Source: Escherichia phage nomo
Sequence record: MN850578.1
Length of the DNA stretch: 64,000 bases
Strand: one strand, 5' to 3'
Part shown: positions 21,060-34,262 of the stretch, one piece after another
Position numbering within the stretch: position 1 is the first letter of the stretch
Layout: each line of letters starts with the position of its first letter
The notes under the pieces: model-generated
What the model was told of the DNA's origin: nothing
The model's input: only the letters and a program-made list of their open reading frames with translations
Database searches by the model: none
Position numbers and translations under genes: made by a program

Positions 21060-23500
21060 TTTCCTACCATAAACGGCCCTACCTGGCAAGTGGAATAATT
21101 GACGAGCCATCAATCCCACACACTGTACAAATATACATGGAAAATAACTATTGCATAATTTTTCATTGTGTGGTAGCAAGGCCATTTTTACACGTTTTTC
21201 CTTCCAAAATTGCACGTAATGCAGCATTTGCACAAAATTTAACCTGATGCATATCTTCAATAGCTTGTCAACAACTAAAAATCTTTATAAGTCATACACT
21301 TACATAACTACAAAAACGTTTTCTACGTGAAAAATCGAGTATAACTATAGCCGCCAGATCTCAGAATTTACGTACGCTCGCCATTCTATAGCCTGCTAAG
21401 CATTTATTCCAACCATAGAATAACTGAATAGTCAATACCTGCATAAAATAATTATTCGTGTAAACTGCATAACATAAATCGGCCCAGGTGTCAACATTTT
21501 TCGTAAACAGTCTGGAATTGTCACGTTAGGTTACCATAAGTAGAGAAATCTTTAGTCGTCTAATGTTTACTGTACGTTACTATATTAACTGAAATCATTA
21601 GATGACTAATAGAAAGATAAGAAATAATTAACAATACAATTATTTTATCTGTAACAATAAGGCAACTATGCAAACGAATGGCATGGCGCGACGGAGTCGC
21701 GACATAATATAAAAGCAGTAACCATCACCCCCGTGATAGTTTGTCTGCAAACTATTAATCAGATCATAGTTGCCTTGTATTTAGTTAATCATGACATAAC
21801 AAGCAAGGCAACTATAGATCTGCTAATAGTTGCCCTGCTTTTATATTATGTCATGCTAATTATAATCAGTGCGATTATTGTCATGTATAATTATTGTCAT
21901 GCAAACGAATGGCATGGCTGATTATCGGTGTGTAAACAGTCAATCATGTAAATGGTTAGCATGTGAACAATCAGGAATGTAAACAATCCAGTGTGTAAAC
22001 TAATAGGTGTGTAAAAGTGTCATGTTGTGTCAGTTAGGTCACATTATGTCAGACAAGTTTTTCTCCTCTTTGTCAAGTGCTGCATGAAAAATTTACAAGC
22101 TTGTATGGTAGCATTTTTGCGGCCCTGTTTACATTCAGGAGTGTATGTATAATCCTTGTTGTGTGGGCGTTTAGACGTCTGGACGGTCAGAAGTCTGCAG
22201 GTCAATATCTAATCTATTGGCTGCTAACTATATCCCCCACAAATAATAAGAAATATAATTGTTATGTGCGTAAACAGTAACCCATGTTATCAATCCCTGT
22301 ATGTATCGCCAGTTGTGCGCATAATGGGTATTATGTTAAATTGCCCGTAATGATAACTATTCTCACAATGATAGGTATTCTCATTCACCCCCACAAGATA
22401 GGTTGCAAATGTTGTGCCACTGTGTGAACGGCCTCACCTATTAATTTGCCTCACTGCCTCGATATTTGAGAATTGTTATAAGAATGAGAAGTATTCCCAT
22501 TCCGTCCGCCTGGCAGCACTCCAGTCGCTACGGCTCCTGACAGGGCAGCACTCCTGTAGGTCAGGTCAAAATCGTGGTAGAACTGGACCTGTTCGGATAT
22601 TTCTGGCTGACTCTTCAGGTCTGTGTGGGAAAAGCCAACCCCTCCGGCGGGGCAGGGGATATCTGCAGGAAAATTGCAGGTCAATTAAAAATTTACGTGG
22701 TGTATGAAGCGCTCTTCAGGCAAGGCATGTATTAGAGGATGAAACCCTCTTCAGGCAATGATATTTGTGGGTGGGATATTTGCTGGAAAGCCAGATATGA
22801 CGGGACTCCCGGCGGGGCAGGGGTAGTACAGACAGGGAAAATATGAGGATGTAATTGGGGAAATTGATCAGACAGGTAGAGTATGGAATATGTTACAGGT
22901 ATGTTAAATATGGAGGTTGAATATCTGTAGGATTTGTGTGTAAAATCAAAGACTTAAGGGGTGTTGTGGTATTTTCTATAAATAATTCAAGTTTAATAGG
23001 CAATATTTGTCTCTATCCGCTTTGTGTGGTAAACAGATTCAGATGAAATTGGTTTACAAGTGTATACATAATATACAAATTAAAGATACAAGAAACCCCC
23101 CTCCCCCCTCGGCTACCATTCACCTTTTCCTCTGACTGGTACTTAAACACTTATTCAGACTCTTCAGGTTATCACCCATATATCATATGGCAGTGACTGG
23201 TGTCCTCCGGCCCCTCTTTCGTCACCCGTCCGCTTCGCCATGCTAATGCCATAGCCAATGGTTCGGTTGTTCACCCTGTTCACTCAGGTGTATCTCCATA
23301 CCCCTTCAAACCGAAGAGAACAGAAAACCCGAATTACTCGGTAAAAGAAAAGAGAAGAACTTAATTTTATCAGGATAGGCAAGAATGTCAAGGCATGACT
23401 GCTCACTAAACAAGCAAACAGTCATGTGTGGAAGGTAAGTGATTGTGGTGGTGGGAAATTTAGTTGAAAGATGTGTTATAGGTGCGCTTCCAGCACTTTA
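21060..23500. other. 2.5-kb non-coding convergence region with several repeat families
   Basis: No convincing ORF; repeats gcaaacgaatggcatggc (x2), tgtgtaaac-like array 21928-22016, ctcttcagg...ccggcggggcagggg units 22606-22840. Confidence 0.55.
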
Positions 23501-23520
23501 GCCTGGCAGCTAATTGTGTG

Positions 23521-23736
23521 TCAGTCCAGCGGTTCATCCTCTACTTCACTGAAATCAATGTTCATGGTCTCTTCCCAACCATCGATCTCAGCACAAGAGT
23601 GGAGTTCTTTAGGGTTTACTCCCAAAGCCTCAGCAACAGAGTCTATATTTAACACCTCTGGTAGGTATGATTCATCGAATTCAAGGTAAATCAGGCCACG
23701 AGTGTTGTCAGCCCCACCAAATATTTCTATCTTCAT
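23521..23736 (-). CDS. hypothetical small acidic protein (71 aa), MKIEI-type N-terminus
   Basis: ORF with RBS; first gene of leftward block. Confidence 0.4.
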   Translation of the reverse strand: MKIEIFGGADNTRGLIYLEFDESYLPEVLNIDSVAEALGVNPKELHSCAEIDGWEETMNIDFSEVEDEPLD

Positions 23737-23857
23737 GAAATCTCCTCTGGAAATGAGAGTGTGAACAGGGTTTTATACGTTCCAATGCACAAGAATTATA
23801 CACGTTTGCCTCTTCAGGCCATGCTTTAGCATGAGGAACCTGTGTGGGCTCGGTGCT

Positions 23858-24073
23858 TCATAGTCTACCACCTCTGAACTCTTCGTGCTCAGGCATAATA
23901 GAGAACCAGATATCTACGATGTCTCCCCACGTCAGGTCATCAGCCTCAGGATCTATCTGGGACGAAGATGAAGAGTCATCAGAATCTAAGTTTTCCTCTT
24001 TCACTGGCTCAGCCAATGGACAACATATGGTCACTCCTTCAGATGTCTCTTCAGATGCATGCGTGTTGATCAT
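23858..24073 (-). CDS. hypothetical acidic protein (71 aa); start uncertain
   Basis: ORF downstream of - strand consensus promoter (ttgaca...tagtat near 24215-24245). Confidence 0.3.
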   Translation of the reverse strand: MINTHASEETSEGVTICCPLAEPVKEENLDSDDSSSSSQIDPEADDLTWGDIVDIWFSIMPEHEEFRGGRL

Positions 24074-24433
24074 GTTCCACCCGTGAGTATTCCGGCAACA
24101 GCCGCTATGGACGTAATGATCATCAGGATCACCACTAAAACTTCGGACAATGTTCTCATTGTGTATCCCATATTCTCCAAACGATGTGTGGATACTATCA
24201 CTGGAACGGTAATGTGTCAACAGAAACGCCGCGAGGGTTTGGTTAAAATCCGAGCGTATGGTGATTTGGGTCAAAACGGACGTGCGTTCTCGCTACGCTC
24301 GAAAGAGAGATTTGTTTGTAGGAAGCTCTTAAACGCTCTGTAATGAGATTATCTGTCCAAGGTATGCAATCGTGCACCAGATAAAGAAAAGGACGCCACA
24401 GAGCGTCCTAGGTGTCTTAAATTTGATATTTTG

Positions 24434-27527: not shown

Positions 27528-27923
27528 TTACTGAAACAGTGCGGATAAATTACCTTCTGGTGGGAACTTATCTGCCAAAAACGGTGTTAGCACAGTAGCC
27601 TTCTGAAGATCTGGGGTCCACTCGTTGTTCAGAACATCCCAGTAGTACGCAATGTTGCTGTGTGGGTGCCGCATTACGAACTTTTTCCCTTCGTAGTCAT
27701 CTGAAACCTCTACAGAAGAAATAACAACAGAATCTTCAAGGGTTTCTTCATAGAAAGATCCGCCTTCAAATTTCCAACGAGATGCAAGAGCCCCTGCCTT
27801 GAACGCTGCAGATAACGGACTGTCGGCAAGAACATACATTTCTTGCACTCTGTCGCTGCGATCTTTGCTTCTTACGTTGTATACAGTATCTGAGCTATAC
27901 TCAACACGGTATAGGCTTACCAT
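27528..27923 (-). CDS. hypothetical protein, paralog family B (131 aa)
   Basis: Shares HPxS...YW...WTP...AT.L motif with 29735-30133. Confidence 0.45.
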   Translation of the reverse strand: MVSLYRVEYSSDTVYNVRSKDRSDRVQEMYVLADSPLSAAFKAGALASRWKFEGGSFYEETLEDSVVISSVEVSDDYEGKKFVMRHPHSNIAYYWDVLNNEWTPDLQKATVLTPFLADKFPPEGNLSALFQ

Positions 27924-28255
27924 TACCGCACCTCCTCAATAACTTCCACATCTGAACCTACCACAAATGCAAAAGGACAGGTTTCATGAAAGACATCCGG
28001 ATCGCCGCCAAGCTTGCTAACAATCTCTCCACCACTAATAAACACAAGCTCACCGATATTCATCAGATTGCTGAAATAGTACCCATAATGATTAAAGAAT
28101 GCAGCAGGGTCAGGTAGATTAGTAGCCTCAAGCACTACATCGGTTGAGGTTACTTTCTTATCATAACCTCTCGCCTTTTGAGATGCAAGATCTGCAGAAT
28201 CCTCAGGCGACCGGAGATGCACAGGAATTGTTTCACCAATAAAGCGTACTTTCAT
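27923..28255 (-). CDS. small acidic protein, paralog family A (110 aa)
   Basis: Starts MKVRFIG, ends SDVEVIEEVR. Confidence 0.45.
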   Translation of the reverse strand: MKVRFIGETIPVHLRSPEDSADLASQKARGYDKKVTSTDVVLEATNLPDPAAFFNHYGYYFSNLMNIGELVFISGGEIVSKLGGDPDVFHETCPFAFVVGSDVEVIEEVR

Positions 28256-28259
28256 ATTA

Positions 28260-28523
28260 TCACCCAACAACCATAGCTTCAAAAGGAGTCATGAACGAAT
28301 AAACGGCATCATCATCTGCTTCAGGGAATGCTCCCAAAGACTTCATATCTGAGCCCTTGACAAATACAAGGTTTTGATCAAAGGCTTCTTGGGGGTCAAT
28401 CCGATACATATTTCGTAAAATATCGCTTACCTCCTCATCAAGAGGTGAGTATGCTGTGCACGTTTTTCCGATCAAGCTTTGAGAATCAGGGTATCCACCT
28501 GAAGTTTTAAAATAAACAATCAT
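28260..28523 (-). CDS. hypothetical protein (87 aa)
   Basis: ORF in array. Confidence 0.4.
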   Translation of the reverse strand: MIVYFKTSGGYPDSQSLIGKTCTAYSPLDEEVSDILRNMYRIDPQEAFDQNLVFVKGSDMKSLGAFPEADDDAVYSFMTPFEAMVVG

Positions 28524-28614: not shown

Positions 28615-28884
28615 TTATTCCTCTACAATCTCATACACATCAGGAGTTACAATCAACTCTTCTCCGTTACCCGGTGCAACAAACACCACCAAACCTTCAG
28701 GTGTGTGCTTTTTAGCCATCTCGATAACATCTTCTCGCAGAGCTGGCTCCATCAGATCAAAACCTTCACCTAGGGCATCACGAACCACCTTCATATAGTC
28801 CACTGGTTGTGCTTCAACAATCATGCCTTCAACCAGTCCACAGTTTTTGTCTGCCAGCTCAGTTTTGAATAATTTAATTTTCAT
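28615..28884 (-). CDS. small acidic protein, paralog family A (89 aa)
   Basis: Starts MKIKLFK, ends PDVYEIVEE. Confidence 0.45.
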   Translation of the reverse strand: MKIKLFKTELADKNCGLVEGMIVEAQPVDYMKVVRDALGEGFDLMEPALREDVIEMAKKHTPEGLVVFVAPGNGEELIVTPDVYEIVEE

Positions 28885-29021
28885 TTAGAGGTCTCCTCAA
28901 TTATTTGATATTAATAGCCGTAACCTAACACATTAACTACAACTGCGATTGCAAACATAATTTCAAAGCATGCAATCTCTACATTTGGGACTAATTTCTT
29001 AATCACACCCATTGTAGCACC

Positions 29022-29342
29022 TCATTCTCCAAAGTCAATCTTTACTTTGCCTTTCCCCTTACCTTTCTTTCCACCGCATTTAGCCAGCTGACGTGCTGCG
29101 ACATCTACCATACGGTCAGTTGCCTCGTAAGCATCACTGACTTTAGCCTTGGCAATAACTTCTTTTCCAGAATTGTCAAAAATGAACGCCATAACTTCCT
29201 GGTGATCATTTTCAACTTTTACACTCACACGTGCATAGTTAACAGAGGGATGTAAACGCTCCAGCTTGGACATTTTGCGGGAAATAAAAGATACCATACC
29301 TTCTGTGATTTCTACATTGTTGCCAGTGATTTCAATTTGCAT
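29022..29342 (-). CDS. ribosome hibernation factor homolog (RaiA/YfiA/HPF family)
   Basis: Translation begins MQIEITGNNVEITEG, nearly identical to the conserved N-terminus of bacterial RaiA/HPF (MQLNITGNNVEITEA), with further conserved positions. Confidence 0.75.
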   Translation of the reverse strand: MQIEITGNNVEITEGMVSFISRKMSKLERLHPSVNYARVSVKVENDHQEVMAFIFDNSGKEVIAKAKVSDAYEATDRMVDVAARQLAKCGGKKGKGKGKVKIDFGE

Positions 29343-29426
29343 AACGTGTTCCTTTTAAGGAAGAGGGAATAACTATCTCTCTTTGAAAACAATGATACTA
29401 AATCTGAAGCGTTGTGTCAACAGTTT

Positions 29427-29734: not shown

Positions 29735-30133
29735 TCAGTCTAGCTTTTCTTCAACAACCCCATAACTTGGGGCAGAGTCAAGAGCTTTCTGGTTTAAAAG
29801 TGGCGTAGCAGAATCTGCAAACGGTGTCCAAGTTTTTGTTCTGGCATTCCAGTAATGCTTCACTCTGGAATCTGGATGCACTATAACAAAAACTTTTTCA
29901 CTTGTCAACACATTAATTTCTTCTACACCCTTGCTGATAATTTCTCCGTCGTAGCCCCCAGTCTGGTATCCTTCGTACCAGGTTCTTGCATAGGCATAGC
30001 CAGCCTGCCAGCATGCAGCCTCCTCCGAGGTGGAGACTACGTAGAAGTCTTTCTCAAATTCCGGAATACGCCCTTGCTTTACGCTCCAAGCTCCGCGAAT
30101 TTTCATTGTTACTTTGAAAAGCTTGTTCTTCAT
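29735..30133 (-). CDS. hypothetical protein, paralog family B (132 aa)
   Basis: HPDSRVKHYWNARTKTWTP matches HPHSNIAYYWDVLNNEWTP of 27528-27923. Confidence 0.45.
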   Translation of the reverse strand: MKNKLFKVTMKIRGAWSVKQGRIPEFEKDFYVVSTSEEAACWQAGYAYARTWYEGYQTGGYDGEIISKGVEEINVLTSEKVFVIVHPDSRVKHYWNARTKTWTPFADSATPLLNQKALDSAPSYGVVEEKLD

Positions 30134-30134
30134 A

Positions 30135-30389
30135 CTACCGCTCTACAATCTCTACGTCTGTTCCTACACCGAAGGCATAGTAATGTTCTTCCCCAAAGTA
30201 ATACTTGGGGACACCCGCTTTGATCAGATCTAACCCGCGAATAAATACCACACCGTGTGATACAGTGGAATGCTTCTGACGCACAGGATCGTTGTCAGGC
30301 AACCATTCAAAGTACACCGCAGGTACAACCTTTCCCTTCAGGAAGGATTGTCCCAAGTAGACGTTAGAATCAAGAATTTTAACCTTCAT
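30135..30389 (-). CDS. small acidic protein, paralog family A (84 aa)
   Basis: Starts MKVKILDSNVYLGQ, ends TDVEIVER. Confidence 0.5.
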   Translation of the reverse strand: MKVKILDSNVYLGQSFLKGKVVPAVYFEWLPDNDPVRQKHSTVSHGVVFIRGLDLIKAGVPKYYFGEEHYYAFGVGTDVEIVER

Positions 30390-30606
30390 TCTCGTCCTCC
30401 ACTATCTCTACATCCTCACCAAGGGCAAAGTTGTAGGTCCACTGGCTGTCAAAGCAGTCCTGAGATGCACCAGCGGCAATAAGATCTGCACCTTTTATTT
30501 TTAAAAGGTCAGGATAATCTTCGTTAGGGATAGCGGTAAACACTTTCCCCACTAAGGGCTCCTGACCAATATAGAAGCTTGAATCTAAAACTTTAACTTT
30601 CATCAA
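30379..30606 (-). CDS. small acidic protein, paralog family A (75 aa)
   Basis: Starts MMKVKVLDSSFYIGQ, ends EDVEIVEDENEG. Confidence 0.5.
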   Translation of the reverse strand: MMKVKVLDSSFYIGQEPLVGKVFTAIPNEDYPDLLKIKGADLIAAGASQDCFDSQWTYNFALGEDVEIVEDENEG

Positions 30607-33498: not shown

Positions 33499-34032
33499 CT
33501 ACAAATGGTCGCTGAGGGTGTCAAGAAAATTATCCCGTTCTTTCTCAGAGTTTTCATGTGTGTAGCTGAAAAACATATCGAGAATAACCTTATTGATATA
33601 TTCCAGCTCCTCTGTGTTCAGATGCTTAGCAGGATCTACAATGACATCCCAAATATCATACAGACCACACTCATGATACCCATAACGCCACTCAATTGTC
33701 AAGCTGAGCGGCAAATCTTTACCTTCACAAACAACCTTCCATCTACATATGTTGGTATCTGGTCGTACCTGTGCACGGTACACCTGCACAAAATCCAATT
33801 TGAATTTGAGGTACTCGTCATACAATTTAAGCACAAAGCTCTCGATTTGTGGAGACACTTTTGCAGCAAACTGTGCGTATTTGTACTTGCACTGGATGAT
33901 CTTTCTGCGTTTTGCAGTTAAATTTTTTGCCGCCAGTTGTTCTTCAGTGTATCTCCACCTACGATCAACAAACGCAACAGGGTCTTTGTCCCCATATAGG
34001 TCTTCCCAGTTAATCAGAAGCATACCTGTCAC
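33499..34032 (-). CDS. hypothetical protein (177 aa)
   Basis: ORF in array. Confidence 0.5.
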   Translation of the reverse strand: MTGMLLINWEDLYGDKDPVAFVDRRWRYTEEQLAAKNLTAKRRKIIQCKYKYAQFAAKVSPQIESFVLKLYDEYLKFKLDFVQVYRAQVRPDTNICRWKVVCEGKDLPLSLTIEWRYGYHECGLYDIWDVIVDPAKHLNTEELEYINKVILDMFFSYTHENSEKERDNFLDTLSDHL

Positions 34033-34262
34033 TCCTCCACAACTTCAAGGCCTTTACCGCCTCGCTCTGGCAGATTACTTAAAGATAGGTAATACATATA
34101 ATCAGGAGAGATCCTGCCAGACTCTGCACCTGCAGCTAGTAAATCCTTCCCTTTAACCAGGACAACATTCTCGTTTGCAGATAGCCGTTTTGCTTCCACA
34201 ATTTTACCAACACAGTCAACCAAGGAAGGGTACCCTAAATCTGTAAGAAATTTAACTTTCAT
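34029..34262 (-). CDS. small acidic protein, paralog family A (77 aa)
   Basis: Starts MKVKFLTDLGY, ends GLEVVEE. Confidence 0.45.
   Translation of the reverse strand: MKVKFLTDLGYPSLVDCVGKIVEAKRLSANENVVLVKGKDLLAAGAESGRISPDYMYYLSLSNLPERGGKGLEVVEE

Follow-up and report, generated by a model that had tools for sequence, protein, structure and literature searches.

Phage-encoded translation factors are rare, and a lytic coliphage that carries a relative of the proteins that silence ribosomes raises the question of what such a protein does during infection. The gene studied here lies on the minus strand of a 64-kb stretch of phage DNA (hereafter the window; 64,000 nucleotides), where an original prediction had placed a homologue of the ribosome hibernation factors RaiA and HPF, with an N-terminus of this family and a Lys/Gly-rich tail.

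The hpf-like gene and its relatives in phage genomes

The ORF list confirms the coordinates, the N-terminus and the tail. The complete 106-residue product is MQIEITGNNVEITEGMVSFISRKMSKLERLHPSVNYARVSVKVENDHQEVMAFIFDNSGKEVIAKAKVSDAYEATDRMVDVAARQLAKCGGKKGKGKGKVKIDFGE, starting with MQIEITGNNVEITEG and ending with CGGKKGKGKGKVKIDFGE; tail residues 90-101 read GGKKGKGKGKVK. The features of the gene are as follows.

29022..29342, minus strand: hpf-like coding sequence, 106 amino acids plus stop, with an ATG start (ORF list)
29350..29353, minus strand: Shine-Dalgarno sequence AGGA, 7 nt 5' of the hpf ATG (read from the sequence; conserved in Vequintavirus loci)
29073..29342, minus strand: predicted folded core, residues 1-90, beta1-alpha1-beta2-beta3-beta4-alpha2 (AlphaFold2, Foldseek)
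29025..29072, minus strand: Lys/Gly-rich C-terminal tail, residues 91-106, GKKGKGKGKVKIDFGE (low pLDDT, charge, conservation)

Judging from nucleotide comparisons, the window is from an rV5-like coliphage (Vequintavirus). Over the 3-kb neighbourhood of hpf, nucleotide identity reaches 99.3% with Escherichia phage rV5_ev146 and 99.2% with naswa; this neighbourhood matches 120 phage records, of which the classified ones inspected are Vequintavirus. The protein itself is found by tblastn in about 118 phage records with 90-99% identity. By protein identity (96%), position after promoter P144, location in an array of small genes and the Lys/Gly tail, the gene is the orthologue of rV5 gp139/ORF144 (YP_002003641.1, ABI79209). 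The two products differ at residues 8-9, where rV5 has a single N and the window NN, and at residue 68 (G in rV5, V in the window). The NN of the window allele (29319..29315 region) is shared with E. coli HPF, naswa and rV5_ev146, and a single N is found in rV5 and most relatives; V68 is replaced by G in all other phage copies compared. Both look like minor allelic variation at loop positions.

The record of rV5 gp139 notes a similarity to the Klebsiella sigma-54 modulation protein P17161. The gene is named RaiA in RefSeq and HPF or 'ribosome hibernation factor' elsewhere, and many records keep the historical name 'sigma 54 modulation factor'; in several records hpf itself is labelled 'ATP-dependent protease La Type I'. 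In the literature, rV5 HPF was counted by Mizuno et al. (2019, Nat Commun, PMC6375957) with the ribosomal proteins that viruses encode, and hpf was mentioned again, for five rV5-like phages, by Mathieu et al. (2020, PMC6969025). Since the gene is annotated in rV5 and was described in these two papers, the gene, its family and the functional puzzle were already known, and the novelty implied by the original prediction does not hold. A literature search on phage HPF function found nothing later than Mizuno 2019 and the mention in Mathieu 2020, and none on expression timing, deletion phenotype or transcriptome for any Vequintavirus.

Eighteen 'Campylobacter phage' records (MG0656xx, host C. jejuni), several of them unannotated or fragmentary, are 93-97% identical to this rV5-like region. 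Their host label looks doubtful, and coliphage contamination of the preparations is possible.

Family membership and predicted structure

Membership of the phage protein in the HPF/RaiA (Ribosomal_S30AE) superfamily is secure. The profile comparison that had been proposed as a check of the original prediction gave scores above the curated cut-offs for both Pfam PF02482 Ribosomal_S30AE (54.8 bits against 23.7, E 1.6e-14, residues 3-89) and NCBIfam TIGR00741, the HPF/YfiA family (56.1 bits against 40.9), and structural and residue evidence likewise supports the predicted family. The more specific models gave scores below their thresholds, with 63.2 bits against 125 for the short HPF (YhbH) equivalog NF007780 and 22.9 bits against 158 for the RaiA (YfiA) equivalog NF007654. 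In PHROGs, the protein falls in a family of its own, phrog_12469 ('unknown function', 228 bits), with a weaker link to phrog_8990 (S30AE, E 1.2e-7). The best sequence matches in the PDB are E. coli HPF (2rql, 4v8h, 6h4n; E 8e-14 to 4e-13, residues 1-90), and RaiA/protein Y is matched only at E ~0.03.

An AlphaFold2 model was built from a 28-sequence alignment (mean pLDDT 83). Block-mean pLDDT lies at 83-95 in residues 1-90 and drops below 50 in residues 92-106, and the predicted elements are strands 2-8, 34-44, 47-56 and 61-68 and helices 14-30 and 71-90. With this model as the query, the top 35 Foldseek matches in the PDB are exclusively HPF, RaiA or pY proteins, including Vibrio HPF (4hei; TM 0.93-0.96, rmsd 0.9-1.0 A), E. 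coli HPF in the 100S ribosome (6h4n_x; TM 0.89, rmsd 1.0 A, 42% identity) and RaiA on the 70S ribosome (4v8i; TM 0.83-0.87, 23-24% identity). Weak fold matches to dsRNA-binding domains are found at ranks 37-47. The protein stops at residue 106, and a second (dimerisation) domain after a linker was found neither in the Pfam scan nor in the AlphaFold2 model; it is thus not a long HPF of the Gram-positive type.

E. coli short HPF (YhbH; 2rql, 6h4n, 4v8h) is the best match in both sequence and structure (40-42% identity, rmsd 1.0 A), and both proteins have the N-terminal motif MQxxITGNNVEITE. The E. coli protein has 95 residues and the phage protein 106, with a one-residue insertion before beta4; whereas the former ends in a short helical basic C-terminus, the latter ends in a disordered 15-residue tail that is 11 residues longer. 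E. coli RaiA (YfiA/protein Y; 4v8i, 1n3g; 113 residues) occupies the ribosomal site of the family and shares the predicted fold and a C-terminal extension past the length of HPF, but it is only 21% identical, and its tail is acidic (-4), unlike the basic phage tail (+4), and unrelated in sequence. Overall, the phage protein is nearer to short HPF than to RaiA, and it is an equivalog of neither.

Ribosome-contact residues and the C-terminal tail

The near-invariant residues of the family (M1, G7, K23, D70, Y72, D76, and Q85) are all present in the phage protein. A cryo-EM preprint on Gram-negative hibernating ribosomes (bioRxiv 2025.10.07.680626) describes basic contacts of HPF alpha2 at K80, R83, K87, K89, and K91, of which K80, R83, K87, and K91 are the sole contacts identical between E. 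coli HPF and RaiA. In the same preprint, K26 and Q29 contact the region around m3U1498, T53 and H62/V62 lie on m2G966, H55 and E60 lie on the C-terminus of uS9, and D75 is also named as an essential contact. These positions were mapped onto the phage protein and 111 diverse cellular representatives.

The E. coli HPF contacts K26, E44, E60, D75, R83, K87, and K91 are retained in the phage protein, where, together with R29, the kept positions are K26, R29, E44, E61, D76, R84, K88, and K92. Position 29 is basic in 81% of the family. Three of the four basic contacts shared by HPF and RaiA are thus kept (R83, K87, and K91 as R84, K88, and K92), although K92, the equivalent of K91, falls in the tail and not in the folded core. 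The fourth, K80, is replaced by V, which is also found in 12 of the 111 cellular representatives. K89 is replaced by G (2 of 111), H62 by I (9 of 111) and Y30 by L (8 of 111), and both T53 and H55 are replaced by F. The binding surface, as far as it can be read from the aligned residues, appears largely intact.

In place of the basic end of alpha2, the phage protein has a flexible polylysine-glycine segment. Net charge over residues 1-90 is -1 in the phage protein, -3 in E. coli HPF and +1 in RaiA; after residue 90, the values are +4, +2 and -4, respectively. The tail had been predicted to be atypical of host HPF, which holds in comparison with enterobacterial short HPF only, because basic stretches right after alpha2 are frequent in the wider family (e.g. 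YKGKRKRKGGGG and HKAKLRDRRGRRSGR); the notion of a unique Lys/Gly tail was dropped for the same reason. Within Vequintavirus, the tail is conserved with small length variants: YN3 lacks one dipeptide, ECP32 ends in IDFLD, and one IMG/VR contig reads GKGKGKGKIDFE. In a divergent lineage described below, the tail has a different sequence (KYSKSKGIDKRTAKWDY) and is yet basic, as are all tail variants compared.

Evolutionary history and selection

A word-indexed search recovered the phage clade alone. In an exhaustive HMMER search of 1.84 billion representatives, the phage clade formed one 50%-identity cluster, represented by a protein (P0004) with 65% identity to the window protein, and all remaining matches had at most 43% identity and E-values of 1e-8 or weaker. 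With the phage protein, enterobacterial HPFs share 37-42% identity, and with E. coli HPF more than 76%. The best non-enteric match is from MAGs of uncultured Gammaproteobacteria (P0128). A recent transfer from a close cellular donor is not supported, as the non-phage HMMER matches are at most about 43% identical. These matches point to a gammaproteobacterial origin of the phage gene with no recent donor visible, and the same origin was found by Mizuno et al. (2019, PMC6375957).

P0004 is encoded on phage-like contigs of up to 137 kb (one of 136.8 kb), and the two long contigs that were read are 124-126 kb. Three Logan/ENA contigs of 44-126 kb (L005-L007) from E. coli-associated assemblies belong to an uncultured Vequintavirus relative. 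This lineage shares 10-13% of a 12-kb stretch with known phages, at 81-88% nucleotide identity, and it may be one that is absent from the collection of cultured phages so far. Gene-for-gene synteny is preserved around its hpf, with neighbours that are 28-86% identical and an hpf product that is 63-65% identical to the window protein. Since synteny is kept, hpf was in the array before the lineages split, and it has diverged about as much as its neighbours. It is an old resident of the small-gene array that has been inherited vertically in this phage lineage. Scans of IMG/VR found nothing beyond two Vequintavirus-like contigs.

Informative Vequintavirus pairs gave dN/dS values of 0.04-0.12, and the near-identical pair with naswa gave 0.27, a value based on two substitutions alone. 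Summed pN/pS within Vequintavirus is 0.072 for the core (residues 1-90) and 0.087 for the tail. Core and tail are both under strong purifying selection.

S30AE-family genes are also present in the large genomes of Cronobacter phage GAP32 and Xanthomonas jumbo phage XaC1. A tblastn search that used the window protein as query (E 1e-5) did not find these HPF-like genes, and GAP32 was placed elsewhere in the tree of Mizuno et al. (PMC6375957). The genes are not close relatives and probably represent independent acquisitions.

Expression signals and gene neighbourhood

As the original prediction had it, the gene lies among small genes: hpf is part of a long array of small minus-strand genes in which Pfam matches are lacking. 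In the direction of transcription, the array is downstream of the genes for thymidylate synthase, aerobic and anaerobic ribonucleotide reductases, PhoH, ClpP, and Dam. Scans of the whole 64-kb window for tRNA genes and Rfam families found none. The plus-strand array of small genes gives way to the minus-strand one at about 21200..24100, where the closest record (L012, 13.2-16.0 kb) has few annotated genes. The signals and repeated genes around hpf are as follows.

29392..29420, minus strand: sigma-70-type promoter-like site, TTGACA-17 nt-TATCAT, about 50 nt 5' of the start codon (consensus scan, 11/12 matches)
27528..27923 and 29735..30133, minus strand: family A paralogues (28% identity, E 1.6e-9)
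27923..28282, 30135..30389, 30379..30606 and 34029..34262, minus strand: family B paralogues (C-terminal G-x-DVE(I/V)(V/I)E motif)

The promoter-like site corresponds to the annotated rV5 promoter P144, and its extended -35 region (AAACTGTTGACACA) does not vary among seven loci, that of the divergent lineage (L005) included. The window contains 24 matches to the motif AAACTGTTGACA where 9.6 are expected, an enrichment. Up to 20.3 kb, these matches are on the plus strand with one exception, and beyond 21.4 kb they are mostly on the minus strand, a distribution in keeping with the orientation of the two divergent gene arrays. The match of the site to the host sigma-70 consensus fits transcription of hpf by the host RNA polymerase in its unmodified form, and for that reason early expression is probable. 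A hairpin in the 5'-UTR, between promoter and Shine-Dalgarno sequence, was rejected, as its folding is no better than that of shuffled sequences (z -0.7 to -1.4; +0.4 at one locus).

The hpf cassette is flanked by modules of paralogous small genes on the minus strand, at 27528..28282 and 29735..30606, with a further member at 34029..34262. In the direction of transcription, the order is B, B, A, a 96-aa gene, the promoter-like site, hpf, genes of 33, 89 and 87 aa, B, and A. Neither family has a Pfam match. The modules may have arisen by tandem duplication with an inserted segment.

Two neighbours of hpf deserve a comment of their own. The 89-aa gene at 28615..28884 (minus strand) is called 'sigma 54 modulation factor' in naswa, ECP32 and apparently several other records. 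As a second factor of this kind it was rejected: it has no Pfam/S30AE match and no similarity to the hpf product, and therefore the label is a propagated annotation error. At 28911..29012 (minus strand), a hydrophobic ORF of 33 aa (MGVIKKLVPNVEIACFEIMFAIAVVVNVLGYGY) starts 10 nt past the hpf stop; it is gp140 in rV5, is unannotated in FFH2 and ECP32, and is absent from L005. It may encode a small membrane peptide that is co-transcribed with hpf.

The published binding experiment

Mizuno et al. (PMC6375957) expressed rV5 HPF from pBAD24 with arabinose in E. coli NM522 grown to an OD600 of 1, passed the ribosomes through a sucrose cushion with 0.5 M NH4Cl, and analysed the 70S and 100S fractions by mass spectrometry. 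Phage peptides, including the C-terminal VKIDFGE, were detected in the extract and none in the 70S or 100S ribosomes, and the 100S peak was unchanged on expression. Short HPF converts the 90S dimers that RMF induces into 100S dimers, and the unchanged 100S peak is the one observation on the phage protein that bears on such an activity. The original prediction had suggested that the protein may manipulate host ribosome activity, e.g. by a block of 100S dimers, and had named a lack of ribosome association as a finding that would speak against it; this one published test goes in that direction. Growth phase, stripping by salt and a true loss of binding were given by the authors as possible causes. 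The cells had been harvested at the end of exponential growth, when few ribosomes are vacant; because of this, and because of the wash in 0.5 M NH4Cl, the negative result is not decisive. Washes of this strength also remove host hibernation factors.

Proposed function and alternatives

The explanation preferred here for the evidence as a whole, and judged somewhat probable, is that Vequintavirus encodes an hpf-like, ribosome-binding factor that preserves the host ribosome pool. All of its relatives with a characterised structure bind the decoding channel of the 30S subunit, and by analogy the phage protein most likely does so too, on host ribosomes that are vacant. Its action can be potentially described as follows. 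The protein would be made during infection from the promoter-like site, probably early, and would, in vacant host ribosomes, insert into the head-body channel of the 30S subunit and so cover the A and P decoding sites. The disordered polylysine-glycine tail may add rRNA contacts that replace the lost helical lysines K80 and K89, and it could run, on a purely conjectural path, towards the RMF pocket as in RaiA. Ribosomes would then be parked as protected 70S monomers and not as 100S dimers. In E. coli, the RaiA tail hinders the binding of RMF and inactive 70S monomers are favoured (PMC7764885, bioRxiv 2025.10.07.680626). The phage tail reaches 11 residues further than E. coli HPF, and for this reason a RaiA-like outcome appears to be the most economical reading, although the phage tail is basic and that of RaiA acidic, which counts against this model of the tail.

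The likely benefit to the phage would be that, through the shielding of 16S rRNA from ribonucleases, it keeps a ribosome pool that cannot be renewed after host shut-off or during starvation of the infected cell. Such shielding is demonstrated for the E. coli factors: RMF, HPF and RaiA protect 16S rRNA from YbeY and RNase R in starvation (PMC7913689). In dormant hosts, phage infection can come to a halt that lasts until the cells resuscitate (PMC10761892, where Vequintavirinae are not mentioned). Counting against the preferred explanation are the published absence of rV5 HPF from ribosomes with an unchanged 100S peak, the changes at the K80, K89, T53, H55, H62, and Y30 positions, and the scores below both equivalog thresholds. 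A more specific version, which is possible but tentative, is that the protein is a functional hybrid, with an HPF-like core and a RaiA-length polybasic tail, that would yield nuclease-protected 70S ribosomes from which RMF is excluded, and that was stripped by salt in the published assay. If so, the phage would gain a ribosome pool that can be quickly reactivated after shut-off or on resuscitation of the host, in effect a virus-run version of ribosome hibernation.

The same predicted fold could serve the opposite end. Mizuno et al. (PMC6375957) proposed an anti-hibernation role, an idea echoed by the original prediction, in which the phage protein displaces or pre-empts host HPF, RMF, and RaiA so that the ribosomes of slow or stationary cells are free for phage mRNAs. 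The binding fold, which the model gives as that of the host factors, and a tail longer than that of HPF, with a reach comparable to the RMF-excluding tail of RaiA, are both consistent with such a competitor. However, the 100S fraction did not change on expression (PMC6375957), and since all known family members occlude the A and P sites, the phage factor, once bound, would be a block to translation in its own right unless very easily released; there is no sign of weaker or more reversible binding. This role is regarded as rather doubtful. A loss or repurposing of ribosome binding, by which the dsRBD-like fold and the polybasic tail would bind other RNA or protein (e.g. mRNA, tRNA, or free rRNA), would account for the absence of the expressed protein from purified ribosomes (PMC6375957), and it is in line with the substitutions at K80, K89, T53, H55, and H62, with an identity of about 40% to enterobacterial HPFs that are themselves more than 76% identical to each other, and with the weak Foldseek matches to dsRNA-binding domains. 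It is nevertheless unlikely: most of the contacts that are universally conserved are kept (R84, K88, K92, K26, R29, and D76), the substituted residues are also found in cellular members of the family, and dissociation in stringent salt washes is named as a possible cause by the authors of the experiment themselves.

It is quite improbable that the protein is a tool of translational shut-off, made early and abundantly to inactivate free host ribosomes and to slow host synthesis or defence. The phage needs the same ribosomes and a mechanism of selectivity is not evident, and arabinose-driven expression in E. coli, kept up in the overnight pre-culture and then in the culture up to an OD600 of 1, was without reported toxicity or an altered ribosome profile. 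Such a role would nonetheless suit the strong sigma-70-like promoter site, the small-gene array and the inhibition of initiation by family members through blocked tRNA and mRNA sites. Small-gene arrays of this kind often hold host-takeover genes. Finally, the historical name 'sigma 54 modulation factor' in many records could be taken to mean that the protein acts on transcription, or the gene might be a neutral hitch-hiker; this pair of readings is effectively refuted. The name stems from the position of hpf in the rpoN operon, and every solved structure of the family is on the ribosome or is described as that of a ribosome factor. Neutrality is excluded because pN/pS is about 0.07-0.09 and because the gene is retained in 118 genomes and in the divergent lineage. 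A ribosome-binding factor that preserves the host ribosome pool therefore remains the preferred explanation, at the strength given above.

Significance

As a discovery, this adds little: the 2019 publication had already covered the gene and its family and had raised the functional puzzle. What is new is the lack of a close cellular donor, the old syntenic residence, the constraint on both core and tail, the retention of three of four shared contacts, the scores below both equivalog thresholds, and a conserved promoter-like site of its own. The analysis also supplies a residue-level rationale and a concrete reason to see the published negative binding result as inconclusive. rV5-like phages are in use against E. 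coli O157. If the protein does bind host ribosomes, phages would manage the integrity or availability of the ribosome pool, which would bear on the infection of slow-growing or dormant bacteria and on phage therapy.
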